From: a phage
DNA: 64,000 nt
Sequence record: OZ346212.1
Direction: 5' to 3' (one strand)
The notes beneath the pieces are model-generated. The model did no database searches and was not told the DNA's origin. It was given only the letters and a program-made list of their open reading frames with translations. Shown here one piece after another: positions 5,166 through 62,897 of this stretch. Position 1 is the first letter of the stretch. Each line of letters opens with the position of its first letter. Made by a program: the position numbers and the translations under genes.

Positions 5166-5438
5166 ATGACCAAACAATATCAACGAATTAAAGCCAAGGT
5201 TAAGCCAGACTATCTGGAGAAGGACTCTGCTTTTCGGGACTGCACAGCTGACAAAGTTTACACAGGGGCCGTCCTGTTGAACGATGAACTTGAAGTAGAT
5301 ATTCTGGGTAAAGAGGCCACTATTAAGGACGACCAAGGCGATTATGTTTGCTGCACCACACGTGAGCTAGAAATCTTAGAATACTTCGGTGAAATCTTCA
5401 CCTCTCTTGATGATTACTTAGATGATGAGGAAGCGTGA
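5166..5438 (+). CDS. hypothetical protein, paralog of 4848-5102
   Basis: ATG 5166 downstream of consensus promoter; track ORF start at 5106 is the -35 hexamer itself (TTG). Confidence 0.6.
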   Translation: MTKQYQRIKAKVKPDYLEKDSAFRDCTADKVYTGAVLLNDELEVDILGKEATIKDDQGDYVCCTTRELEILEYFGEIFTSLDDYLDDEEA

Positions 5439-5827
5439 TGAAAAATATTTGGGATATCGATATCTTTGAAGCCTCTAAGCTTGATGGTGCTGATGGAGTG
5501 ATTATGGTGTCTGATGGCAAAGCAACACTAACTTCCGGAGATATCATCTATGCCTTGGACGAGCTGGCGCTTCTGAAATCTACCGGTAACACTTTAGAGG
5601 AGCGTCTTCAAGGCTTCGCCTTCAAAGAAGGCACAAATACCGCCATGATGTGCACCACACGGACAGTTCAAGTTGGTAACGGTGTCTATATGATCATTGC
5701 TGTGTGTCCTAAATTCAGCAACGTCAACAAAGATGATGCTGACGCTGTCAACGATGTGGTTGTTCTCTTCGTGGGTGACGCTATGGCAGATCTGATGAAT
5801 GCAGGAGAAGCAGCAAATGAAGACTGA
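5435..5827 (+). CDS. hypothetical protein (130 aa)
   Basis: Track ORF, ATGA overlap with upstream gene. Confidence 0.55.
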   Translation: MMKNIWDIDIFEASKLDGADGVIMVSDGKATLTSGDIIYALDELALLKSTGNTLEERLQGFAFKEGTNTAMMCTTRTVQVGNGVYMIIAVCPKFSNVNKDDADAVNDVVVLFVGDAMADLMNAGEAANED

Positions 5828-6119
5828 AAACATCACCCCCGCAGGGTTCTTAAAAGTATACCGTGAACTGCTATATACTACAGAGGACAGTGTTCTAGAG
5901 TATCCAGAATATCTTTTGCTGTATAAGTATCTGCAGGAGGCTGGTGAAAATCTGCCAGTTAGTGCAGAAGGTGGTCCGAACTGGATATACAGCGCATGGA
6001 GAAAGGTTGACATTCTCCCAGATCCGGGTAAAGATATGGTAGTTTGGCAGCTTATCAACAACATCGGGATTCCAATCTTTGATGAAGCTGTTAAAATCTA
6101 TTTTGAACTTGACGATTAA
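5817..6119 (+). CDS. hypothetical protein
   Basis: Internal ATG 5817 after AGGAGAAG; avoids overlap with previous gene. Confidence 0.5.
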   Translation: MKTENITPAGFLKVYRELLYTTEDSVLEYPEYLLLYKYLQEAGENLPVSAEGGPNWIYSAWRKVDILPDPGKDMVVWQLINNIGIPIFDEAVKIYFELDD

Positions 6120-6136
6120 TATCAGGAGACCTTAAG

Positions 6137-6382
6137 ATGGCTGAAGTAGTTGCTCGCGCAGGACAGAAAGTACGTTGTGTGGAAGTAGGTTTTGGTGGCA
6201 AAGGGTGTCAAAACTTGACTCAAGGTAAGGAATACGCTGTTATTTCTGGTGGTGGCGACGAGAGTATTGTGTTCGAGGGCCACATCCTGGATGCTGAAAA
6301 CTTTGAAATCTTTGACGACGATGGAGATCCGATCACCTGCCTGCTGGACGGGAATTGGGGAACTTTCGAAGTGATTGGCTAA
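6137..6382 (+). CDS. hypothetical protein (81 aa)
   Basis: SD AGGAGA upstream; Gly-rich small protein. Confidence 0.55.
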   Translation: MAEVVARAGQKVRCVEVGFGGKGCQNLTQGKEYAVISGGGDESIVFEGHILDAENFEIFDDDGDPITCLLDGNWGTFEVIG

Positions 6383-6465
6383 CAAATACCTATTGTAATT
6401 TACAGAAGGGGATGCTAAAATAGTGTCTCCTTCTATGTTGTTCAAATAAAATCGGAGATTCCATA

Positions 6466-6831
6466 ATGGAACAAATGAACGATCAAGCGTCGGTTGCGAT
6501 GAACGAGCAAGAACAACCTCAAGAATTTTTCTTAGGGTTAAGTAAAGATCAAGTGTCTCTTCTGCTAGTGCTTTCTTCTTTCATGGGAAGACTTCAGGAG
6601 CTCACACAACAGCCAGAGGCTGAACAATTATTCCAAGCTTTGCGTGAAGAAGAAAAATATCGTCGTTTGGACTATGCCTTAGGTTGGGTAGCTCAACAAC
6701 GAGATATGCTGATGGCCCTCTCTGGGACCACAAGTTTTGCAATGGGGCTGTTGGCTCAAGTTCAGGACAAATTAATTCAAGCAGGGTTTGCACACACGGC
6801 AAACACTAACGAAGAACAAGGAGACAAATAA
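6466..6831 (+). CDS. hypothetical protein (121 aa)
   Basis: Track ORF with SD-like GGAGA upstream. Confidence 0.55.
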   Translation: MEQMNDQASVAMNEQEQPQEFFLGLSKDQVSLLLVLSSFMGRLQELTQQPEAEQLFQALREEEKYRRLDYALGWVAQQRDMLMALSGTTSFAMGLLAQVQDKLIQAGFAHTANTNEEQGDK

Positions 6832-8057
6832 TGAGCGTTATTCAACAATTCGCTAACCCGATGAATCCGCGTGAAACTGTTTTACTGGCTCACGGCATGA
6901 TTAAACGTGTCAGCATCAAGCCTATCAAAGGTGCTGATCCTACAACAGGTATTAAAACCACTGTGTGGCAAGGTAAGAAAATTGAATCCAGCCACACCAT
7001 CTCTTTACTGATTTCTGAACTGGATTCCTCTGATAACCTGCTTCAAGGTGGTGAAGAAGTTTGGATCAGCATGGGTGATAAGCTGCTTAAACCTGGTCAT
7101 CAAGACTCTGTCTCTGTTAAAATTGATGACAAGTGGGAAACCGTAACGCCGGGATGGATCGTAAATATTCCTTTGAAGGCAAACGAGCATAACGGTAAGA
7201 CCTATTACAAAGGCTCACTGGCTAAGATGGTCAAGCTGGGTGCAGGAGAGGCTCCAGCAGCGACTCAGCAGCAAAAACAGCAACAAGGTGCACAATCACA
7301 AGGCCAGAAGCAGAAACCTCAGCAGAATGCCAATCAGGACGTTTTACGCATCTATGGTGATGTGACTCAGATTGTTGGCAACGTGGTTACTGTTAATGAC
7401 CACAAGATTGGCGAAGGTGCTATGGTTGTAACTGATGAGCAGCTTAAAGACCTGGTGGTAGGTGGTCGTGTTGCAGCCATTGTTGACAAAGACACCGGAA
7501 ACATTATCAGTGGTTTCAAGGCCTATCCTCCTAAGGCAGAGAACGGCACTCAAGGCTCTGGTGGCAAGCGTAAATCCTCTTACGACCCTATCGGTGTGGA
7601 AACGGGGCATAGCATCAATGCGTTGCAGATCATCCTGGATCGCGGGTTTAAGGTAGACGACCCACTGGGCGTGGCTAAAACACTGCACGTAGTCACCATT
7701 GAGCTTAAGAAAGAGTATGCTCAAGCCACCAACCGAGCTGAAGATGAAGTAGGTGCCAGTGTCGGTAATGCGGTGTTGAACGCTTGTCGCCGTATTGACA
7801 AGAAAACGAAAGTTGATGATTTTGCAGTGGCAATTACTGCAGAAGCAAAAGATGTCTTGACTAATCTAGCTGAGCCGTTGTACGATTGGATCAAGAACGG
7901 TGCTGAGTCCACTGACCATCAAGAACCTCAGGCTGCCAAACAGGAAGCAGCTCCACAGCAAAACACTGTAGACGCTCCTCCTGTAAATGATGCGGAAGAT
8001 GACCCAATGGATCAGAATCCAGCACAGTACGTCTTTGATGATGACATCCCATTTTAA
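6831..8057 (+). CDS. putative ssDNA-binding-like protein with SSB-type C-terminal tip
   Basis: Ends ...YVFDDDIPF*, identical to the E. coli SSB interaction tip; internal Q-rich low-complexity linker (QQQKQQQGAQSQGQKQKPQQ). Confidence 0.45.
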   Translation: MSVIQQFANPMNPRETVLLAHGMIKRVSIKPIKGADPTTGIKTTVWQGKKIESSHTISLLISELDSSDNLLQGGEEVWISMGDKLLKPGHQDSVSVKIDDKWETVTPGWIVNIPLKANEHNGKTYYKGSLAKMVKLGAGEAPAATQQQKQQQGAQSQGQKQKPQQNANQDVLRIYGDVTQIVGNVVTVNDHKIGEGAMVVTDEQLKDLVVGGRVAAIVDKDTGNIISGFKAYPPKAENGTQGSGGKRKSSYDPIGVETGHSINALQIILDRGFKVDDPLGVAKTLHVVTIELKKEYAQATNRAEDEVGASVGNAVLNACRRIDKKTKVDDFAVAITAEAKDVLTNLAEPLYDWIKNGAESTDHQEPQAAKQEAAPQQNTVDAPPVNDAEDDPMDQNPAQYVFDDDIPF

Positions 8058-51764: not shown

Positions 51765-52058
51765 TCAAGACTTTTTAGTCTTTCTTGGAGAGCTTTTTGT
51801 TGATCTTTTCCTTTTGTGGTAGATTCCAAGTGCAGCGTTTTCTTGGGCGCACGTTTTAACAGTTCTCAGAGAAGAACTTTCAGCTTTAGGCAGGTTTAAC
51901 TCCCACCAACCGAGCCAGTAAAGTTCTGATTCCGACAGCTGCTCAGATTCAGCCTTCCGATACAATGATTGCATACCTCTAATGATGTCGTCCAGAGGTG
52001 TATCGAATACAAAAGCTGTCTTATCGAATTTCTCTTTTACAGGTCTCTTAGCCATCAA
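51765..52058 (-). CDS. hypothetical protein with basic C-terminus (97 aa)
   Basis: Track ORF; ...HKRKRSTKSSPRKTKKS. Confidence 0.5.
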   Translation of the reverse strand: MMAKRPVKEKFDKTAFVFDTPLDDIIRGMQSLYRKAESEQLSESELYWLGWWELNLPKAESSSLRTVKTCAQENAALGIYHKRKRSTKSSPRKTKKS

Positions 52059-52563
52059 GGTAACCCTCTATCCACGAAAAGTCAGTCTTCCATTCTGGAA
52101 CTTTACTAAGCTCACGCCACTCTGCAAAGCAGTCTCGGTAATACGCCTCTGCCATACTCTTGGTGATCTTATTCACCTTAGCCAACTGATTAACTGCCTG
52201 AGCATACTTTCCACGGATATTTGCTAACCCAGGATGCACCGATGTGTGACAATCCGGGCACAGTGCTATCAGTCCGACAAGCCGGATCACTCCCTCTTCG
52301 AAAGTGTAAAGTTCATGACACTCCACTGGGTGTTTGCTGCCTTTACCGCCGCACACCTCACAAGTGTAGTTGGCTTCTCTATAGCACTTCTTACGTATCT
52401 TATCCCACTCACTCTTCTTCACAGCGTTTCGGAGGTTATTATACCAAGCTGTTTCTGGGATCAGTTGCACAATAAGCCTGCGTTCAGACTTCATTAAACG
52501 TCCGTCTTCCACGTGTTCTCCCTCATTCAAAGAAATGGGTGCGAGGGCAGGAACCTGCCTCAC
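52048..52563 (-). CDS. HNH endonuclease (free-standing)
   Basis: CEVCGGKGS...HPVECHELY...CPDCH zinc/HNH motif pattern. Confidence 0.6.
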   Translation of the reverse strand: MRQVPALAPISLNEGEHVEDGRLMKSERRLIVQLIPETAWYNNLRNAVKKSEWDKIRKKCYREANYTCEVCGGKGSKHPVECHELYTFEEGVIRLVGLIALCPDCHTSVHPGLANIRGKYAQAVNQLAKVNKITKSMAEAYYRDCFAEWRELSKVPEWKTDFSWIEGYLDG

Positions 52564-52792: not shown

Positions 52793-53263
52793 TCAATCAA
52801 GGACAACACCGCCTGCCTTTTTAAACACCTCGATCAACTTCTCGATCTTCTGTTCATGCTGACCATATCCAGCACCAGGTAACGAAGCCCAGCGGGAACG
52901 GCATTTATGGATAGCCTCGTGGATACGCCCTTCGTCAATGTCGGCGAGAGCCTTGCACTCACGGATCAGTTGCAACGCAATCTTGTCCTGACTGGCGGGG
53001 CCAAAATCTGGCAATCCTAACTGTTCCATGTAGTGTTTAGCAAACTTCTCCAAAACCTGGTAACGACCAGCAGCGGAGGAGGTAAGTTTAGCATTTAGCT
53101 TAACGTACACACCTGGATGCTTGCTGTAATCGCTAAACAGCTTGCCACCAACTATGACATCGTATCCCCGATCCTTAGTGGGTTGCCTACCATTATCTGT
53201 GCCTTCCGAATATGCGATCATGTCCAAGAAAGCTTTTCGTTGAACATTTTTATCAAGTTTCAT
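52793..53263 (-). CDS. lysozyme / lytic transglycosylase, lambda R-like endolysin
   Basis: QRKAFLDMIAYSEGTDNGRQ...GYDVIVGG...WASLPGAGYGQHE collinear with lambda R QRKAFLDMLAWSEGTDNGRQ... Confidence 0.85.
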   Translation of the reverse strand: MKLDKNVQRKAFLDMIAYSEGTDNGRQPTKDRGYDVIVGGKLFSDYSKHPGVYVKLNAKLTSSAAGRYQVLEKFAKHYMEQLGLPDFGPASQDKIALQLIRECKALADIDEGRIHEAIHKCRSRWASLPGAGYGQHEQKIEKLIEVFKKAGGVVLD

Positions 53264-53386: not shown

Positions 53387-54670
53387 TCATTCAAGCACCT
53401 CCCAAGTGTCTGGGTTAACATTTCGGACGCAGATACCGACAGGGAATTGGTAATTGTTGTCTTCTGTCCTTGCTTGGTATTTGAAGGTGACAAACTTGCC
53501 GATCATTTCCTGCATCCTGTCATAGCTACGCTCCTCGTGCGTGCCTTTCATCTTCATTTTAACAACAACACCTTCCTTGTCAACACAGATAAGAACACCT
53601 TCATCATTCTTATCTTTCTCAACGTCAATAACTTTCACCTCTGCGTCGTTGAACTTTTTCCATTTCAATGCTTCAGATGTTCGCTGACCATACTCATATT
53701 TACCGCAGAAATTACGCATGATAGTACCTTCATATCCTTCGGACATGAATATACCAACAGATTCTTCGCAATGATCAACTGTGTACGCAAGCTCTGCGTC
53801 AACAACCTTGATATGATCAAGCATCAGAGTGGTAACGGTATCCTCTGCATCCATAAGATCCTTGCAGCGTCCAGACTCTGTTTCTGGATCCCACCACACC
53901 TTGTCGCTAGGAATATCAAAAATGTGATACTCCAGATCGTAGCTACAGTATCCACCGTAACGCAAATCATCACGAACAGGCTCAACATCGACAGGAATAT
54001 CTACCTTGTTGAAGTTTTTGTATGTTGATAAGCCTGCCTTAATTGCTGCATGACGGCGTTTTTTATCTGCCTCATAGTCTTTATCGATCTCGGCCTGAAT
54101 CTCTTCCTGTGTGCGCCACCGTTTAGCAAGAGACACTATTTTCTGCAAAGGAAGACCATGAATGTATAGTTCCCCATCAAGTTGTTTAATCCCAGTGGTA
54201 GAATGGAAAGAACGAAGTTGCTCTAAAAGCTTTCCTTGAATAGGGTAGGACTTATTACCACGGGAAATAAATTTAGGCTCACCATTTTGGAAAACAACAA
54301 GCAGACGAAGGCCATCTAACTTACGCAAGATCCAGCAAGGTAATTTAAGTGCCTTGCCACGCTTCAGGTAGTCATGCACCAGCATAGGTAAAAGATCAAC
54401 ACCCTGCTCGCAATCTTCCATGTTTTCAACATACCCCAGACGGACTTGTTTTTCCCACTTGCTGATAGCCTCAAGCTCGGCCTGTTGCTCAGCTGTAGTC
54501 TCGTTGGCACGACCTACGTTTTTAGGTGTACATACCGTCTCTTTGTACTGCAATTTACCGTCAAGCTTGCCAAACTCTACGATAACCTTTTCGCCATCAG
54601 TGAATACTTTCCACTGTTGGTAGCTGCCATCTTTGTTCAGTGCGTACAGTGTTGTTTTGATTTGATGCAT
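53387..54670 (-). CDS. ATP-dependent DNA ligase
   Basis: Adenylation motif I RKLDGLR (KxDGxR). Confidence 0.7.
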   Translation of the reverse strand: MHQIKTTLYALNKDGSYQQWKVFTDGEKVIVEFGKLDGKLQYKETVCTPKNVGRANETTAEQQAELEAISKWEKQVRLGYVENMEDCEQGVDLLPMLVHDYLKRGKALKLPCWILRKLDGLRLLVVFQNGEPKFISRGNKSYPIQGKLLEQLRSFHSTTGIKQLDGELYIHGLPLQKIVSLAKRWRTQEEIQAEIDKDYEADKKRRHAAIKAGLSTYKNFNKVDIPVDVEPVRDDLRYGGYCSYDLEYHIFDIPSDKVWWDPETESGRCKDLMDAEDTVTTLMLDHIKVVDAELAYTVDHCEESVGIFMSEGYEGTIMRNFCGKYEYGQRTSEALKWKKFNDAEVKVIDVEKDKNDEGVLICVDKEGVVVKMKMKGTHEERSYDRMQEMIGKFVTFKYQARTEDNNYQFPVGICVRNVNPDTWEVLE

Positions 54671-55234: not shown

Positions 55235-55296
55235 AACTAACTACCTCACTGCATACTTTCCATAATAAGTAAAGCCGGGTAATCCCGGCTATGTTG

Positions 55297-56010
55297 TTAA
55301 ATATACTCTGTTACATCCTTGAAGCTCGAAGGCTTCATAATCTTACCTTTACTGTCAAGGAATATAATAACTTTATTACCGTTGTAGAACTCCTCTTTAG
55401 CAACGAAACCTTCGTAGCGACCACCAAAACGACGCTCAAGATCTTCAATCTCTAACTCTATGAGCAATTCAGTAGACATATCTGCACTGGCACCGTGAGA
55501 ATATCGTAGATGGTTGATCCGTGCAAACTTGCTGTCATTAGATTTGAGAACCTTCCGCATCATCCCACACACATCGCCGCGAAGCTGGAACAGCAAAGCT
55601 GTTGACAACTCCGCTAAGCGGTAAGCTGACGCTCTTTGCTTGGATGTGTTTTTCGCAGCGATCAGTGTATCATAGAACTCACCGATCTTGAACTTAAGAC
55701 CTCGTGGATTATCAAACAGGTTTGACCACTTTTCGTGATTATCATTAACAAGATAAGCGGCATAACTTGTGACAACGTGAAGATCGCAGGCCTCTTTTAG
55801 CAGGTGATCTCCACCATCACCTTTCTCCAGCTCTTCCAAAACCTCATTGAACTCTTCCTCAATGAAGCTAAGCTGTAATTCGAATGGTGTGTATGATTTT
55901 TTCACTTTAGCTGCCACACGGTTCCAGTTTTCCACCCAGTTGGCAGACCAAAGGTAGTTTTCAGGCTGAGACAGTTTTTCCAGGTTGTCGATCAGTTTAG
56001 TATTCAGCAT
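55297..56010 (-). CDS. hypothetical protein, possibly MazG-like NTP pyrophosphohydrolase
   Basis: EEEFNEVLEELEKGD...LKEACDLHVV reminiscent of MazG EExxE...EA...D pattern; weak. Confidence 0.3.
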   Translation of the reverse strand: MLNTKLIDNLEKLSQPENYLWSANWVENWNRVAAKVKKSYTPFELQLSFIEEEFNEVLEELEKGDGGDHLLKEACDLHVVTSYAAYLVNDNHEKWSNLFDNPRGLKFKIGEFYDTLIAAKNTSKQRASAYRLAELSTALLFQLRGDVCGMMRKVLKSNDSKFARINHLRYSHGASADMSTELLIELEIEDLERRFGGRYEGFVAKEEFYNGNKVIIFLDSKGKIMKPSSFKDVTEYI

Positions 56011-56023
56011 TAAAGGTCTCCTT

Positions 56024-56785
56024 TTAAAGTTCCATAAAGTTTTCTACAGTTTCAATAAATGCTTTATCAGAGAAAGCGTCAACAGCACCGTTAAACCATA
56101 CAGGGATCCCGCGATCCTCATATTGATAAAGGTCGCTACGTGAAATGCCACTCCCATCTGCACTCTGCGAGTCATACTTGTTTACAATCAGCAGTTTTGT
56201 GCCTTTACAAGTAGCAGGAAACAATTCCCAGTTAAAATTAATAACTGTGTTAGAACAACCTACTAGGATCACCATATCATTGCTTGTGAGAGATGTCAAC
56301 AGGTCATACATGTCTGTATACTTAGGAGCAACCTCACCGAAGAACACTACATTGGGCTTAACCCAGGTATACTTGCCTGTATCTACCTCCGTGTATCCGA
56401 TATTTTTAATTACATCATTACCTTCAGCATCTTCGTAGGTGATTTCAGGCAAATACCCGTGGACATGTAAAATATCTTCATGTTTTACACCAGCACGCTC
56501 CAGCAAATCATCTACATTGGTGGTAAGGTTGATCACACGACCAGACCAGCGGGAATACCACTCAGCGATCCGAAGATGTGCAAGGTTAGGATCAACACTG
56601 CCCAGAGCTACACGACGTGCATTGTAAAAGTCATGCACCTTATAGTAGTTCTTGGCAAAGGTGTGGATGTTGCACACCTCATCGATGCTGAAATTCTCCC
56701 ACATTGCAGTGCTACCAGATCGGAAAGTGGGAATACCAGATTCAGCGCTCAAACCAGCACCGGAGATAATAATCAGTCGTCGCAT
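56024..56785 (-). CDS. Sir2-family (sirtuin-like) NAD-dependent protein lacking zinc-ribbon cysteines
   Basis: Rossmann signature IIISGAGLSAESGIPTFRS and catalytic-His region LHVHG; no CxxC...CxxC pairs. Confidence 0.75.
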   Translation of the reverse strand: MRRLIIISGAGLSAESGIPTFRSGSTAMWENFSIDEVCNIHTFAKNYYKVHDFYNARRVALGSVDPNLAHLRIAEWYSRWSGRVINLTTNVDDLLERAGVKHEDILHVHGYLPEITYEDAEGNDVIKNIGYTEVDTGKYTWVKPNVVFFGEVAPKYTDMYDLLTSLTSNDMVILVGCSNTVINFNWELFPATCKGTKLLIVNKYDSQSADGSGISRSDLYQYEDRGIPVWFNGAVDAFSDKAFIETVENFMEL

Positions 56786-56793
56786 AAGTGTCC

Positions 56794-57144
56794 TCAGTAG
56801 ATGTTTTGTTTAATCTCTATTCCAAACTTCTTGAATGAGTCAGCAGCAAGCATAAATTTACGAGCTGCCGATGGATTAGAAGTATGCACGAAAATAATCA
56901 CGTTGTCAATAAGTGGTGGCTTTCCGAATACAAGTTTCTCCTCTAGCGCAGAGAAGCAGTCGTACCCTTCAAGCACTTCACCTAGATCATTGTCAAAATA
57001 CCACTCAGATACGCGTCTGTAGAGCTTTCTCTTATCATTAAGAAAATCCATAAACTCAGAAGAATTCTTTAGCCACAGAGCGTCTGGGAGTCCATAATCT
57101 GACGGATCTCTAAAATCATCAAGCCACACAATCCACTTCTTCAT
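56794..57144 (-). CDS. hypothetical protein (116 aa)
   Basis: Track ORF between the sirtuin-like and ligase-like genes. Confidence 0.5.
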   Translation of the reverse strand: MKKWIVWLDDFRDPSDYGLPDALWLKNSSEFMDFLNDKRKLYRRVSEWYFDNDLGEVLEGYDCFSALEEKLVFGKPPLIDNVIIFVHTSNPSAARKFMLAADSFKKFGIEIKQNIY

Positions 57145-58076
57145 TGCATATAGTCCTCGTTGTGGAAATAGTAGTCCAGTATCTCACGACGCTCCTGCTC
57201 TAATAAGCAATTCCACACATCTTCTGTATAGTTGCTACGAATAAATTTTACCATACCGTAAAACTCTTCGTCAACACGTTTAAAGATATCATCATCCCAA
57301 ATCTTCCAAGCTTTACCCCTCATTACTGCCTTCCGTGCCAGATAGTATGGAGACTTGATCTTCAGCTGCAGATCATAAGGGTAGTAAGGCTTACGAATCA
57401 TATACCCTTCACCTCTTGTTTCTGCAGCTAATTCTTTTGCATAGCTGAACGGAATTTCACGCACAGTGTTAGGACGTTTTGCACCAAGGTATTTGGCAAT
57501 CCCATCTAAAGCTGCTTCTGGTAGCATTATTCCAGAATCATTATATCTGCAACCTATCAAATATGCGCCATGGTCTTCTTGAACAATATGCGGATCTGAA
57601 GGGTGACAAATTTCAAACATGAATGTCATGTTTTCATTGCCCATAACCTTCTTGATAAGATCTAAATTACCACATTGCTCTTGGATGGTTTCCTTTGCAA
57701 GGTTACAATATGGAGAATCAAGAGACCCGGTTGTTGAGAACAATAGGTCACCTTTATGAGATGATACCACACCAAGGAATCCGTTCTTTTTCTCTACCGC
57801 AGTCACAAGCTTATTGTCAGGCAGGTTGGTGGAGTTTTCTCCCAAGTTAAACACTTTTGTGAAGGGCCATGCCACAACATTTCCTTCATTACCTACAACA
57901 ATGCCTCGGCACTCCAGTAAACGAGGGGACAAATGCCATAAATTGTTGTAAAATACTTTTCTAGCATATTTATAGATCTTTAACCCGAGATCTGGGTAAT
58001 ACCTACTGGTTACAAGACCTTTGTCAACTAGGTCGTCTGCATTAAAATACTTCATTATATGTTCCTCATTTGTCAT
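57141..58076 (-). CDS. putative RNA ligase / nucleotidyltransferase (ligase superfamily)
   Basis: Candidate motif I VEKKNGF (KxNG); divergently paired with P-loop kinase and phosphoesterase next to tRNA genes. Confidence 0.4.
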   Translation of the reverse strand: MTNEEHIMKYFNADDLVDKGLVTSRYYPDLGLKIYKYARKVFYNNLWHLSPRLLECRGIVVGNEGNVVAWPFTKVFNLGENSTNLPDNKLVTAVEKKNGFLGVVSSHKGDLLFSTTGSLDSPYCNLAKETIQEQCGNLDLIKKVMGNENMTFMFEICHPSDPHIVQEDHGAYLIGCRYNDSGIMLPEAALDGIAKYLGAKRPNTVREIPFSYAKELAAETRGEGYMIRKPYYPYDLQLKIKSPYYLARKAVMRGKAWKIWDDDIFKRVDEEFYGMVKFIRSNYTEDVWNCLLEQERREILDYYFHNEDYMQ

Positions 58077-58176
58077 TTTGTCAGTCTATCCTGCCACACA
58101 AATAACCTAGTGTCAACACTTGAAATTAACAAAACAGTTAGGTATACTACCGTTGAAATTAAAACGGAGGGTCGCT

Positions 58177-58587
58177 ATGTCTAAAATGCTATATATCGTG
58201 CGTGGTCTACCAGGGTCTGGCAAATCAACACTGGCAAATGAGCTATCTTTAGAGGGTCTGTATCCACATTTTGAGAACGACATGTTCTGGTATGACGATG
58301 ACGGCAATTACAACTGGGATGCAAGTAAAGTAACACTCGCAGCAAAATGGTGCAAAGATAACGTAGAAGATATGATGCGTATGGGATACGACCGTATCGT
58401 GGTAAGTAATACGTTTACAAAAGAAAAACATGTGCAGGAATATGTTGACATGGCAATCACTCACGGGTATAGTTATACCGTGATCGTGGTTGAAAACCGC
58501 CACGGTAATAAAAGCATTCATGATGTTCCAGACAAGGTTGTGGATCGTATGGAACGCCAGCTTAAAAACTGCATTAAACTTAAATGA
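58177..58587 (+). CDS. P-loop polynucleotide-kinase-like protein
   Basis: ATG 58177 after GGAGGG; Walker A GLPGSGKST; track ORF start 58120 lies in promoter. Confidence 0.6.
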   Translation: MSKMLYIVRGLPGSGKSTLANELSLEGLYPHFENDMFWYDDDGNYNWDASKVTLAAKWCKDNVEDMMRMGYDRIVVSNTFTKEKHVQEYVDMAITHGYSYTVIVVENRHGNKSIHDVPDKVVDRMERQLKNCIKLK

Positions 58588-58594
58588 GGAATGT

Positions 58595-59149
58595 ATGAAA
58601 TACTTTGTAACAAGCGACACACACTTTCTCCACCAGCGGGTCATGGAGTTTGATTCATGTCAAAAACACAGATCTCAGTATGATCACAATCTTGACAGTA
58701 TGAATGCAGGAATCATCGCCGAGTGGAACTCTGTTGTGTCACCTGCAGACACTGTGTTCCACTTGGGAGATATTGCGTGCACTAATGATAAGAATATCAA
58801 CAACTTACTTCCAGATATTCTAAATATGTTGAACGGACATATTATTCTTGTTCGTGGCAACCATGACACAAGGACGACTGTCAGAATTATGAAAGAGTTC
58901 GGTCATGAGGTTGTAGATTATTACGAGCTTCGCCACAACAAGAATTTGATCTGTATGAGCCATTACCAGTTTGCAAAGTGGAACAGAAAGCCTCACGGAT
59001 CAGTCCAACTGTTCGGTCATGCTCACGGAACCACACAACAGTTGTTTGGCAGGCAGCTTGATGTCGGTTGGGATGTGTGGGGGAGACTCTTACCATTAGA
59101 AGAGGCATACCGTATTGCAATGAGTTTTGATATTGACAGCAGGGAGTAA
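58595..59149 (+). CDS. calcineurin-like metallophosphoesterase
   Basis: MPP motifs SDTHF, GDIAC, GNHD; ATG 58595 after GAGGA. Confidence 0.65.
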   Translation: MKYFVTSDTHFLHQRVMEFDSCQKHRSQYDHNLDSMNAGIIAEWNSVVSPADTVFHLGDIACTNDKNINNLLPDILNMLNGHIILVRGNHDTRTTVRIMKEFGHEVVDYYELRHNKNLICMSHYQFAKWNRKPHGSVQLFGHAHGTTQQLFGRQLDVGWDVWGRLLPLEEAYRIAMSFDIDSRE

Positions 59150-59196
59150 TCCCTGCTATTTTAAAGAAAATTGCCACACAAGGAGAATCAGGAGAT

Positions 59197-59547
59197 ATGA
59201 AAGATGGGGATAAGCTGCTATATCTTAAAGTCCCCCTTGAAATACTATCTATGTCAAAAGTTTTGAATGACACAACTGGGGAGGTTGTTGTTCTTGACTT
59301 GTATGACAAGATCGTATACTGCTACCTGCACAACTGGTATAAGCTTGGAGGAAATTCACGCTTCACACCAAGCACAAGGAAAATTGCAGCAGATGTTGGG
59401 ATAAAGAAAACAAAAGCAGCAGCGTGCGTTAAAACTTTAGAATGTGCAGGAGTGGTTGAAACATCCACACAAGGGAGAGGTAAAAGATGCACATTTTCCA
59501 AAGTTTTGCCACCAGAAGAAGTTATTCGGATGTCAACAACTGGTTAG
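59197..59547 (+). CDS. putative HTH DNA-binding protein
   Basis: Helix-turn-helix-like STRKIAADVGIKKTKAAACVKTLECAGVV; immediately upstream of iteron array. Confidence 0.5.
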   Translation: MKDGDKLLYLKVPLEILSMSKVLNDTTGEVVVLDLYDKIVYCYLHNWYKLGGNSRFTPSTRKIAADVGIKKTKAAACVKTLECAGVVETSTQGRGKRCTFSKVLPPEEVIRMSTTG

Positions 59548-62084: not shown

Positions 62085-62159
62085 GCCCTGTTAGCTTAGT
62101 GGATAAAGCAGCGGCCTTCTAAGCCGTTGACACTGGTTCGAGTCCAGTACGGGGTGCCA
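62085..62159 (+). tRNA. tRNA-Arg (anticodon UCU)
   Basis: Hand-folded cloverleaf: acceptor GCCCTGT/ACGGGGT, anticodon loop CTTCTAA, T-loop TTCGAGT, encoded CCA. Confidence 0.8.
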
Positions 62160-62163
62160 AATT

Positions 62164-62250
62164 GGGGAGTTATCCCGTAGAGGTAGCGGTGTAGACTGTA
62201 AATCTATTGTCATTGCGACTCGGGTGGTTCGACTCCACCACTCCCCACCA
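62164..62250 (+). tRNA. tRNA-Tyr (anticodon GUA), long variable arm
   Basis: Acceptor GGGGAGT/ACTCCCC, anticodon loop CTGTAAA, T-loop TTCGACT, CCA; overall like E. coli tRNA-Tyr. Confidence 0.8.
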
Positions 62251-62364
62251 AATTTATATTTTTAGATGCATAAATAATACAGATAATGGCATTGATATTT
62301 ATCGTCGTTTATACTAGTCACTAACTGCTCGAAAATCAGTGTCATTATCAGTATTATTTATAAA

Positions 62365-62455
62365 GGAGGGTAGGGAGCAATGGTGCTCAATCGGTCTTGA
62401 AAACCGTCCCGTTGAGGATGACTCGATGATGGTTCGATTCCATTACTCTCCGCCA
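62365..62455 (+). tRNA. tRNA-Ser (anticodon UGA), long variable arm
   Basis: Acceptor GGAGGGT/ACTCTCC, anticodon loop CTTGAAA, 20-nt variable arm, T-loop TTCGATT, CCA. Confidence 0.75.
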
Positions 62456-62553
62456 CATTGTTGACCTTGTAATTAAGCGAAAGTCGGAAGCAGAACCGGA
62501 TTATCAAATGTTACAGTCGTCATCGCCGACTAGCAACATGGTCAACATACTGA

Positions 62554-62650
62554 GCTAGGTAAGCCCTTTGGCAAGGGCGAGGATTTTTAATCCTGAAAAT
62601 AGACGAGGTAGTCGTTGAATACATAGGTGGTTCGATTCCATCACCTAGCA
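62554..62650 (+). tRNA. atypical 97-nt tRNA-like gene (possibly Lys-UUU with about 29-nt variable region) or pseudo-tRNA
   Basis: Perfect acceptor GCTAGGT/ACCTAGC, D-arm GCCC...GGGC, hairpin with loop TTTTTAA, extra hairpin ACGA-ggtag-TCGT, T-arm GGTGG-TTCGATT-CCATC; no encoded CCA. Confidence 0.35.
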
Positions 62651-62657
62651 CCTTTTT

Positions 62658-62733
62658 GCTGATGTAGCACAATCGGTAGTGCAATTGATTTGTAATCAAT
62701 AGGTTGTAGGTTCAAGTCCTGCCATCAGCACCA
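62658..62733 (+). tRNA. tRNA-Thr (anticodon UGU)
   Basis: Acceptor GCTGATG/CATCAGC, anticodon stem ATTGA/TCAAT with loop TTTGTAA, T-loop TTCAAGT, CCA. Confidence 0.85.
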
Positions 62734-62734
62734 A

Positions 62735-62809
62735 GGCCCTGTAGCTGGAAGGTTCAAGCAAGCGACTCATAATCGCCAGACGGTGGTTCAATTCCACCCA
62801 GGGCCACCA
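62735..62809 (+). tRNA. tRNA-Met or Ile2 (anticodon CAU), elongator type
   Basis: Acceptor GGCCCTG/CAGGGCC fully paired (not initiator-like), anticodon loop CTCATAA, T-loop TTCAATT, CCA. Confidence 0.75.
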
Positions 62810-62820
62810 AATAGTAAATA

Positions 62821-62897
62821 CTCCGCGTAGCTCAGCTTGGTAGAGCGCCTGATTTGGGATCAGGAGGTCGAGTGTTCGAATCACTCCGTGGAGACCA
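62821..62897 (+). tRNA. tRNA-Pro (anticodon UGG)
   Basis: Acceptor CTCCGCG/CGTGGAG, D-arm GCTC...GAGC, anticodon stem CCTGA/TCAGG with loop TTTGGGA, T-loop TTCGAAT, CCA. Confidence 0.85.

Follow-up and report, generated by a model that had tools for sequence, protein, structure and literature searches.

Genes of the locus

The present analysis concerns a group of genes in a 64,000-nucleotide stretch of phage DNA (sequence record OZ346212.1; hereafter the window). A predicted ATP-dependent RNA ligase of the Rnl1/Trl1 type (57141-58076, minus strand; PF09511, phrog_562) is arranged divergently to a predicted stand-alone polynucleotide 5'-hydroxyl kinase of 136 amino acids (aa) (58177-58587, plus strand; AAA_33, phrog_505) and a binuclear metallophosphoesterase (MPP) of 184 aa (58595-59149, plus strand; Metallophos_2/Metallophos, phrog_547). 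An earlier note on this DNA had described the three open reading frames (ORFs) as an RNA repair cassette about 3 kb away from a tRNA cluster. Their positions and motifs, KKNG in the ligase, GLPGSGKST in the kinase and DTHF/GD/GNHD in the MPP, were found as described, and the tRNA cluster starts 2.9 kb downstream at 62085. Ligase, kinase and MPP could be retained as members of the cassette, but its boundaries had been drawn too narrowly because three genes co-oriented with the ligase were omitted. These code for a 116-aa cREC protein with a cyclic-phosphate-processing receiver-like domain (56794-57144, minus strand; PF20274), a 253-aa Sir2-family enzyme dependent on nicotinamide adenine dinucleotide (NAD+) (56024-56785, minus strand; PF02146, phrog_2162) and a 237-aa MazG-like all-alpha nucleoside triphosphate (NTP) pyrophosphohydrolase (55297-56010, minus strand; phrog_671).

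The region between 56700 and 59600 matches Escherichia phage isim with 100% identity and about 100 further rV5-like coliphages with 97-99.9%; these belong to the genus Vequintavirus, to which the window is assigned by its sequence. Since 118 of the 120 matching phage records span at least 80% of this query, the region is a conserved feature of the genus. Orthologues in the BASEL phage CarlMeissner are labelled 'RNA ligase', 'polynucleotide kinase', 'putative phosphoresterase' and 'sirtuin domain NAD-dependent deacetylase'.

The RNA ligase

The ligase ORF comprises 311 aa, to which all ligase residue numbers refer, and contains motif I as VEKKNGF with K96. An ATG at 58055 (M8) is preceded by a GAGGA Shine-Dalgarno sequence 7 nt upstream and agrees with the N-termini of homologues; it is probably the start codon and gives a mature protein of 304 aa. 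The protein matched the Pfam family RNA_lig_T4_1 (PF09511) with an E-value of 1e-14 (55.4 bits, cut-off 28.3) and the T4 RnlA family of the PHROGs database (phrog_562) with 1.9e-65, and a database search retrieved 1679 relatives, nearly all of them about 300 aa long. An alignment of 23 sequences revealed R57, K74, F76, K96 (motif I, KxNG), N98, G99, E155 (motif III), E223-G224 (motif IV) and K239/K241 (motif V) as invariant residues, along with D161-P162-H163 after motif III.

The lone ligase sequence had no significant phmmer match in the PDB, and a family profile was needed to find relatives of known structure. The sole significant match of this profile was T4 Rnl1 (2e-12), with an alignment that ends at T4 residue 249. 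The T4 residues R54, K75, F77, K99, G102, E159, E227, G228, K240 and K242 correspond to R57, K74, F76, K96, G99, E155, E223, G224, K239 and K241 of the window ligase. Mutational work on T4 Rnl1 has established R54, K75, F77, K99, D101, G102, E159, E227, G228, K240 and K242 as essential. Database-verified sequences in these comparisons are those returned from the PDB and residues 49-248 of T4 Rnl1. T4 Rnl1 also appears to be the closest structural neighbour of an AlphaFold (AF2) model of the ligase, which reached a predicted local distance difference test score (pLDDT) of 89 and a predicted template modelling score (pTM) of 0.86. C-terminal to motif V, only about 70 aa remain, folded into four short helices in this model. 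The T4 RnlA equivalog profile TIGR02308 was matched at profile positions 32-250 only and with 38.4 bits compared to a cut-off of 242. As judged from these comparisons, the protein is an RNA ligase of the Rnl1/Trl1 neighbourhood and no strict T4 RnlA equivalog.

DNA ligase and capping enzyme, both named in the earlier note as identities that would refute its reading, were considered for this nucleotidyltransferase. Both were ruled out by the fold scores, by the profile search, in which T4 Rnl1 was the only significant PDB match, and by the presence of a separate ATP-dependent DNA ligase gene (PF01068 and OB domain; 53387-54670, minus strand), which lies 2.5 kb away from the RNA ligase.

The polynucleotide kinase

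The kinase ORF opens at 58120, and an ATG at 58177 with GGAGG upstream is the most likely start. The protein matched Pfam AAA_33 (5.9e-11) and the polynucleotide kinase family phrog_505, and its features include the P-loop GLPGSGKST (G10-T18), an invariant D35 as putative general base, an SNT motif and an ENRHG...IHxVP lid. As with the ligase, a phmmer search of the PDB with the lone sequence returned no significant match and a family profile was required. Built from 22 sequences, this profile placed T4 Pnk (1LY1/1LTQ) first with an E-value of 5.5e-9 over the full length (residues 1-129), followed by Pnkp1 of the Pnkp1-Rnl-Hen1 system, a Mucorales kinase, PSTK, CthPnk and mammalian PNKP. With about 1e-3 or worse, the matches to adenylate, shikimate and gluconate kinases are weaker by orders of magnitude. 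The invariant D35 aligns with Asp35, the general base of T4 Pnk. A nucleoside monophosphate (NMP) kinase of the dNMP or adenylate type is thus ruled out by the profile ranking and by the fusions with ligase domains described below, and sequence comparison identifies the protein as a T4-Pnk-like polynucleotide kinase. The refuting conditions set in the earlier note for ligase and kinase have thus both turned out in favour of its reading.

The metallophosphoesterase

The MPP ORF opens at 58490. Its most likely start is the ATG at 58595, which lies behind a GAGGA that overlaps the kinase stop codon. The protein matched Pfam Metallophos_2 with 1.2e-6, was also above the cut-off of Metallophos, and was assigned to phrog_547. 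It contains the motifs SDTHF, GD, GNHD, H123 and GHAH. In an alignment of 23 sequences, the metal ligands D8, H10, D59, N89, H90, H123, H142 and H144 are invariant or nearly so, and the same applies to G58-D59, G88-N89-H90 and G141-H142-x-H144, so that the protein has the features of a calcineurin-like binuclear MPP. The closest relative of solved structure is Aquifex aq_1665 (1XM7; 2.5e-23). Binuclear MPPs such as CthPnkp and lambda phosphatase have proven 2',3'-cyclic phosphodiesterase and phosphomonoesterase activities in RNA repair (PMC2190708). By analogy, the window MPP is presumed to act as a 2',3'-cyclic phosphodiesterase and 3'-phosphatase in end healing.

Conserved linkage and natural fusions

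The gene neighbourhood of the ligase family was analyzed in 80 viral contigs with ligase relatives of 36-89% identity (81 loci), whose ORFs were searched with iterated hidden Markov models of the window proteins. The ligases were reduced to a non-redundant set of 60 clusters at 90% identity, and the distance limit for a neighbour was set to 2.5 kb. Within this limit, 52 of the 60 clusters have a kinase, 52 have an MPP, and 46 have both. The partners are mostly adjacent and co-oriented in the order MPP-LIG-KIN or KIN-LIG-MPP; the divergent genes of the window go back to a local rearrangement. The clustering of the three genes is not due to chance.

Moreover, the three activities were found joined in single polypeptides. 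A Pfam-confirmed fusion of kinase and ligase occurs in 14 phage contigs, which represent two clusters. When one genome of each prokaryotic species was scanned, cellular homologues were detected only in Cardiobacteriaceae and in Leptolyngbyaceae cyanobacteria. Metagenome-assembled genomes of the Cardiobacteriaceae (our loci L083, positions 5383-7513, L085, L087 and L111) contain a kinase-ligase fusion of about 490 aa and, directly downstream of it, an MPP belonging to the same family as that of the window. Leptolyngbyaceae code on the chromosome for a protein of about 712 aa with the domain order AAA_33, Metallophos and RNA_lig_T4_1, as in Leptolyngbya sp. PCC 7375 (L093, 4726-6864) and about 20 other loci (L084-L110). 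The N-terminal two-thirds of this protein, kinase and MPP, matched the bacterial Pnkp profile TIGR04075 with an E-value of 4e-53 and 181 bits compared to a cut-off of 750. It looks like a domain swap, in which a phage Rnl1-like ligase domain and not one of the Pnkp type has been placed on a Pnkp-like front. The evidence for a joint action of the three activities is strongest in these fusions, which also bear out the proposal of the earlier note that the window holds the activities of a Pnkp-type enzyme as separate polypeptides.

It is hardly conceivable that the three genes are functionally unrelated neighbours, the ligase being a gp63-like factor for tail-fibre attachment, the kinase acting on nucleotides and the MPP being a generic phosphatase of nucleotide metabolism or protein dephosphorylation. 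Existing annotation does lend itself to such a view, as many GenBank records have copied 'RNA ligase and tail fiber attachment catalyst' from T4 gp63 and name the kinase 'ATPase' or 'phosphoesterase', and the MPP family is biochemically uncharacterised. It is contradicted by the two kinds of fusion, by an adjacency that is kept down to 36% ligase identity and across the orders MPP-LIG-KIN, KIN-LIG-MPP and divergent, by the kinase profile, which ranks polynucleotide kinases well above NMP kinases, and by the intactness of every catalytic motif of the ligase.

The cREC, sirtuin and MazG-like genes

The minus-strand unit of the window is tightly packed. Ligase and cREC genes overlap by 4 bp, which suggests translational coupling, and the gaps between cREC and Sir2 and between Sir2 and MazG measure 8 bp and 13 bp, respectively. 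Ligase, cREC, Sir2 and MazG-like gene form one operon, which extends from 55297 up to the ligase and is closed just past the MazG-like gene by a terminator-like GC-rich hairpin of 7 bp (AGCCGGG-ATTA-CCCGGCT, 55273-55290; consensus match only).

The cREC protein matched PF20274 with an E-value of 9.1e-14 (52.3 bits, cut-off 27), and D9, D10, D51, D53, S89 and K96 are invariant in the alignment. No histidine kinase was found close to it among the window ORFs scanned. The domain was named and tied to RNA ligases in a jumbo-phage study of 2021 (PMC7824862) from the group of Iyer et al., whose later work is discussed below. The Sir2-family protein matched PF02146 with 6.9e-28 and phrog_2162, and remained under every NCBIfam deacylase cut-off. 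Its NAD site GAGxSxxSGIxxFR and residues N90, D92 and H109 are invariant, and zinc-binding cysteines are absent. The MazG-like protein matched phrog_671 (5.7e-22) and has an EExxE...D signature with invariant E52, E53, E56 and D76. In relatives, cREC lies directly between ligase and kinase and Sir2 adjoins the kinase; distant relatives of about 145 kb show the contiguous order LIG-cREC-KIN-SIR2. Overall, the three genes are present in only about 8-11 of the 60 ligase clusters. As most relatives carry only the trio of ligase, kinase and MPP, cREC, Sir2 and MazG are accessory and not core components, a lineage-specific addition to the trio.

Several other loci have further small genes in these positions. 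At loci of the Erwinia phage Hena1 type (L007, 11334-11819; L008, 11349-11837; L014, 11337-11822), a conserved 161-aa protein (phrog_652, no Pfam match) is encoded between kinase and sirtuin. The cREC gene is not detectable there, and the 161-aa protein may be a non-homologous replacement of it. A NADAR domain was considered for this protein and is unsupported, as Pfam gave no match and PHROGs returned only families of unknown function. A group of 90-100 kb phage contigs (L011, 10876-11292; L016, 10909-11325; L018, L019, L026, L027, L030 and L032) contains a conserved protein of about 138 aa (MTIKMRLDT...), always between ligase and kinase, and a conserved 73-aa protein between MPP and ligase. 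Both may be extra components of the module. That the 138-aa ORF is a divergent cREC was ruled out by the missing DD...D pattern and its helical look. In L061 (5258-7772), genes resembling NMN-adenylyltransferase/Nudix and nicotinamide phosphoribosyltransferase proteins, recognized by eye and pointing to NAD+ salvage, lie between kinase and ligase. Small ORFs with HAD-type motifs of the DxDxT/DxDG kind occur within the module in L038 (6535-6942; also L039 and L040) and L070 (5991-6602). Going by these motifs, the ORFs may code for alternative 3'-phosphatases.

Control region and flanking genes

The ligase is separated from the divergent kinase-MPP pair by a spacer of about 100-120 bp (58056/58077-58176). 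This intergenic control region (58077-58176) contains a putative sigma-70-like site facing the kinase (TTGAAA-17-TATACT, 58120-58148; consensus match only). Downstream of the MPP, after 47 bp, follows a gene for a 116-aa helix-turn-helix protein (DUF6945/HTH_36; 'replication initiation protein' in PHROGs; 59197-59547, plus strand), to which a promoter-like site at 59133-59162 belongs. As it adjoins the module in the closest relatives only, this gene is probably not part of it. On the other side, the orthologues of two minus-strand ORFs (52048-52563 and 52793-53263) are annotated as homing endonuclease and endolysin.

Comparison with known RNA repair systems

A neighbourhood of this composition has been predicted before. 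Iyer, Burroughs, Anantharaman and Aravind (Viruses 2022; PMC9503650, section 3.7.3) described a type-2, sirtuin-centred phage RNA repair neighbourhood with Escherichia phage V5 and Proteus phage Mydo as prototypes. It comprises a T4-like tRNA ligase, cREC, a nucleotide kinase, a sirtuin, a MazG pyrophosphatase and a calcineurin-like phosphoesterase. All six components were found within 55297-59149, in the same genus as the V5 prototype, and the window is an instance of this computationally predicted neighbourhood. The genes had been annotated and the neighbourhood published beforehand, so it is no new kind of system. The weighting differs: the phosphoesterase is called 'occasional' in that paper, whereas in our set it is MPP and kinase that accompany the ligase as widely conserved partners, with sirtuin, cREC and MazG restricted to particular lineages. 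What the present analysis adds is the recognition of the ligase-kinase-MPP trio, and not the sirtuin, as the conserved core, and the natural kinase-ligase (Cardiobacteriaceae) and kinase-MPP-ligase (Leptolyngbyaceae) fusions.

With T4 Pnkp and Rnl1, the predicted module would share 5' phosphorylation, removal of 3' and cyclic phosphates and ATP-dependent sealing. The kinase domain of T4 Pnk is the closest solved relative of the window kinase, and T4 Rnl1 is closest to the ligase in sequence and, in the model, in fold. The arrangement is different, as the earlier note had stated: T4 combines kinase and HAD phosphatase in one protein, whereas the 136-aa window kinase is separate, has no HAD (DxDxT) domain and is paired with the MPP, to which 3' healing is assigned. 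The ligase is only about 20% identical to T4 Rnl1 and differs in the absence of its 120-aa C-terminal domain, in its KxNG motif I and in a Thr for Lys119.

The bacterial Pnkp/Hen1 system of Clostridium thermocellum has the same three enzyme classes with an MPP as 3' healer, and in the cyanobacterial fusions homologues of the window ligase stand in the same kinase-MPP-ligase order behind a Pnkp-like N-terminal part. Membership in this system was nevertheless ruled out by the MPP type, the TIGR04075 scores and the fold comparison. The window has three genes on two strands, none of its proteins matches TIGR04075, the MPP is of the aq_1665 and not of the lambda phosphatase type, and the ligase domain is not of the Pnkp type. 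A Pfam and PHROGs scan of the ORFs between 52048 and 59547 detected no Hen1-type methyltransferase.

The third point of reference is the tRNA ligase Trl1 of fungi and plants, with its ligase, kinase and cyclic phosphodiesterase domains (LIG-KIN-CPD), together with the 2'-phosphotransferase Tpt1/KptA. The predicted fold of the window ligase is nearly as similar to Trl1 as to T4 Rnl1, motif I is KxNG in both, a His aligns with Trl1 His227, which binds the 2'-PO4, both kinases are P-loop types of one clade, and an NAD+-dependent enzyme is encoded in the operon. On the other hand, a 2H cyclic phosphodiesterase is absent, no Tpt1 was detected, the C-terminal domain of the ligase is shorter, the Arg pair of the 2'-phosphate site is not demonstrably conserved, and sequence profiles retrieve T4 Rnl1.

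These likenesses raise the question of yeast- or plant-like chemistry, in which cREC or the MPP would open 2',3'-cyclic phosphates to 3'-OH/2'-PO4 ends, the ligase would prefer or require the 2'-PO4 like Trl1, and the sirtuin would remove the 2'-phosphate afterwards. We regard this as rather unlikely. The 2'-PO4-binding triad of CthLIG consists of H227, R334 and R337 (PMC11404444). By hhalign (84% probability, E-value 7.5e-6) and MAFFT, the invariant H163, which lies eight residues past the Glu of motif III, aligns with Trl1 His227 (His193 in Saccharomyces cerevisiae), a member of this triad; T4 Rnl1, which does not join 2'-P ends, lacks a His at this place. The DPH motif around H163 is just as invariant in the fusion proteins of cyanobacteria, whose Pnkp-like MPP type yields 2'-OH/3'-OH ends. 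Invariant K249 and R253 past motif V lie roughly where Trl1 has Arg334 and Arg337, but no objective alignment relates the two pairs, since hhalign ended at motif IV and MAFFT introduced gaps. Moreover, plant Trl1 has no Arg pair and is still 2'-P-dependent, so that the pair is a weak predictor. Motif I is KxNG as in Trl1 and not KEDG, but the ligase profile retrieves T4 Rnl1 and not Trl1. As to removal of the 2'-phosphate, the sirtuin of the operon uses NAD+ and has intact N, D and H residues, NAD+ salvage genes lie within the L061 module, and exactly this role, KptA/Tpt1-like on RNA 2'-phosphates, was proposed by Iyer et al. (PMC9503650). However, no sirtuin is known as RNA 2'-phosphotransferase, and in most phages with the trio a sirtuin, a cREC or a recognisable Tpt1 is absent within 10 kb.

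In its most far-reaching form, the phage ligase family of about 300 aa would be the viral counterpart of Trl1, and the zinc-less sirtuin would be the first NAD+-dependent remover of RNA 2'-phosphates other than Tpt1. Vequintaviruses would then possess the whole of a yeast-style tRNA ligation pathway, in which cREC and MazG dispose of the by-product ADP-ribose-cyclic-phosphate. This is a doubtful proposition, and the Trl1-like His offers a concrete handle for mutational analysis.

The tRNA genes near the module

Seven tRNA genes, for Arg-UCU, Tyr, Ser-UGA, a Lys-UUU-like tRNA, Thr, Met/Ile-CAU and Pro, lie at 62085-62897 on the plus strand. They are possible substrates of the module or a parallel countermeasure, and are considered here as context only. 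ARAGORN predicted no intron in any of the window tRNAs. Among 54 related loci, 38 have tRNA genes within 10 kb of the ligase homologue.

One member of the cluster is atypical. For the tRNA of 97-99 nt at 62554-62652 (plus strand), ARAGORN gave a 4-base 'anticodon' and no assignment, and Rfam scored 35.5 bits. The minimum free energy fold has a 7-bp acceptor stem, a 6-bp D stem, an anticodon loop UUUUUAA (UUU for Lys), a normal T arm and an extra arm of about 30 nt with its own hairpin. The orthologue is annotated as tRNA-Lys in GenBank, and L002 (270-367) carries the gene as well. It is an unusual tRNA-Lys(UUU) with a long variable arm. PrrC classically targets tRNA-Lys(UUU), and the atypical form could be a nuclease-resistant substitute.

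In some marine and environmental phage contigs, ARAGORN detected further translation-related genes within 10 kb of the module, namely tmRNA-like genes (L051, 16168-16570; L055, 19157-19505; L056, 15208-15610; L067, 18341-18663) and amber-reading tRNAs with a CUA anticodon (L055, 17172-17247; L062, L063, L067 and L070). They may point to recoding or suppression of TAG and to a wider clustering of translation-rescue genes.

Biological role

It is quite likely that the locus is a phage RNA end-healing and sealing module of T4-like chemistry, in which an MPP replaces the HAD phosphatase and which has acquired an accessory NAD+-linked branch. The protein identities, the intact catalytic residues, the conserved linkage and the natural fusions form the direct basis of this reading, and we infer tRNA as the substrate, the outcome of the individual healing steps and a role in counter-defence. 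The kinase would phosphorylate the 5'-OH of the RNA at the expense of an NTP held by the P-loop, with Asp35 acting as general base. The MPP would open the cyclic phosphate and strip the remaining monoester, leaving a 3'-OH. The ligase would then be adenylylated at Lys96, activate the 5'-phosphate as AppRNA and join the ends. The cREC, sirtuin and MazG-like proteins, co-transcribed with the ligase in the Vequintavirinae, probably provide an NAD+-dependent branch for cyclic or 2'-phosphate ends or for the by-product ADP-ribose-cyclic-phosphate. By analogy, the module probably repairs tRNAs that have been cut by host defence nucleases. The T4 precedent makes counter-defence the natural reading, and the frequent proximity of tRNA genes is compatible with it.

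Several observations weigh against this reading. In the ligase, the Asn N98 replaces Asp101 and a Thr replaces Lys119 of T4 Rnl1. The C-terminal tRNA-specificity domain of T4 Rnl1 (residues ~255-374) is missing and the score is far under the RnlA cut-off, so that tRNA specificity should not be assumed. The MPP is not of the lambda phosphatase type proven in CthPnkp, and its relative aq_1665 has no assigned function. The loci compared share common ancestry, and their synteny counts are therefore not independent events. In addition, a homologue of the ATP-dependent DNA ligase lies within 2.5 kb in 26 of the 60 clusters, and part of the clustering may reflect a general block of nucleic-acid-enzyme genes. 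Our literature search found neither biochemical or genetic data for any of the six proteins nor experimental work on RNA repair in Vequintavirus.

Alternatively, the module might serve the phage's own RNA metabolism by rejoining phage or host RNAs cut by a phage endoribonuclease, maturing unusual phage tRNAs or performing RNA quality control. This seems improbable. It would agree with the position of the module in the conserved core of the genus (118 of 120 records) and not in a variable accessory island, with the nearby cluster that includes the atypical Lys-like tRNA, and with cellular homologues in cyanobacteria and Cardiobacteriaceae outside an obvious phage context. However, no tRNA in the window has a predicted intron, and a Pfam and PHROGs scan of the ORFs found no transesterifying phage RNase next to the module. 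T4 Pnkp/Rnl1, the one phage precedent characterised so far, acts in counter-defence (PMC9503650).

If the counter-defence reading is true, the module is a second, differently built phage answer to tRNA-cleaving immunity, with a stand-alone kinase and an MPP where T4 uses a kinase-HAD fusion. The defences concerned include PrrC, RloC, colicin-type nucleases and possibly newer tRNA-targeting systems. As the module is carried by widely used E. coli phages including BASEL members, knock-outs and defence panels are readily available. The sirtuin, cREC and MazG branch is, in turn, a predicted case of NAD+-dependent RNA repair in phages.

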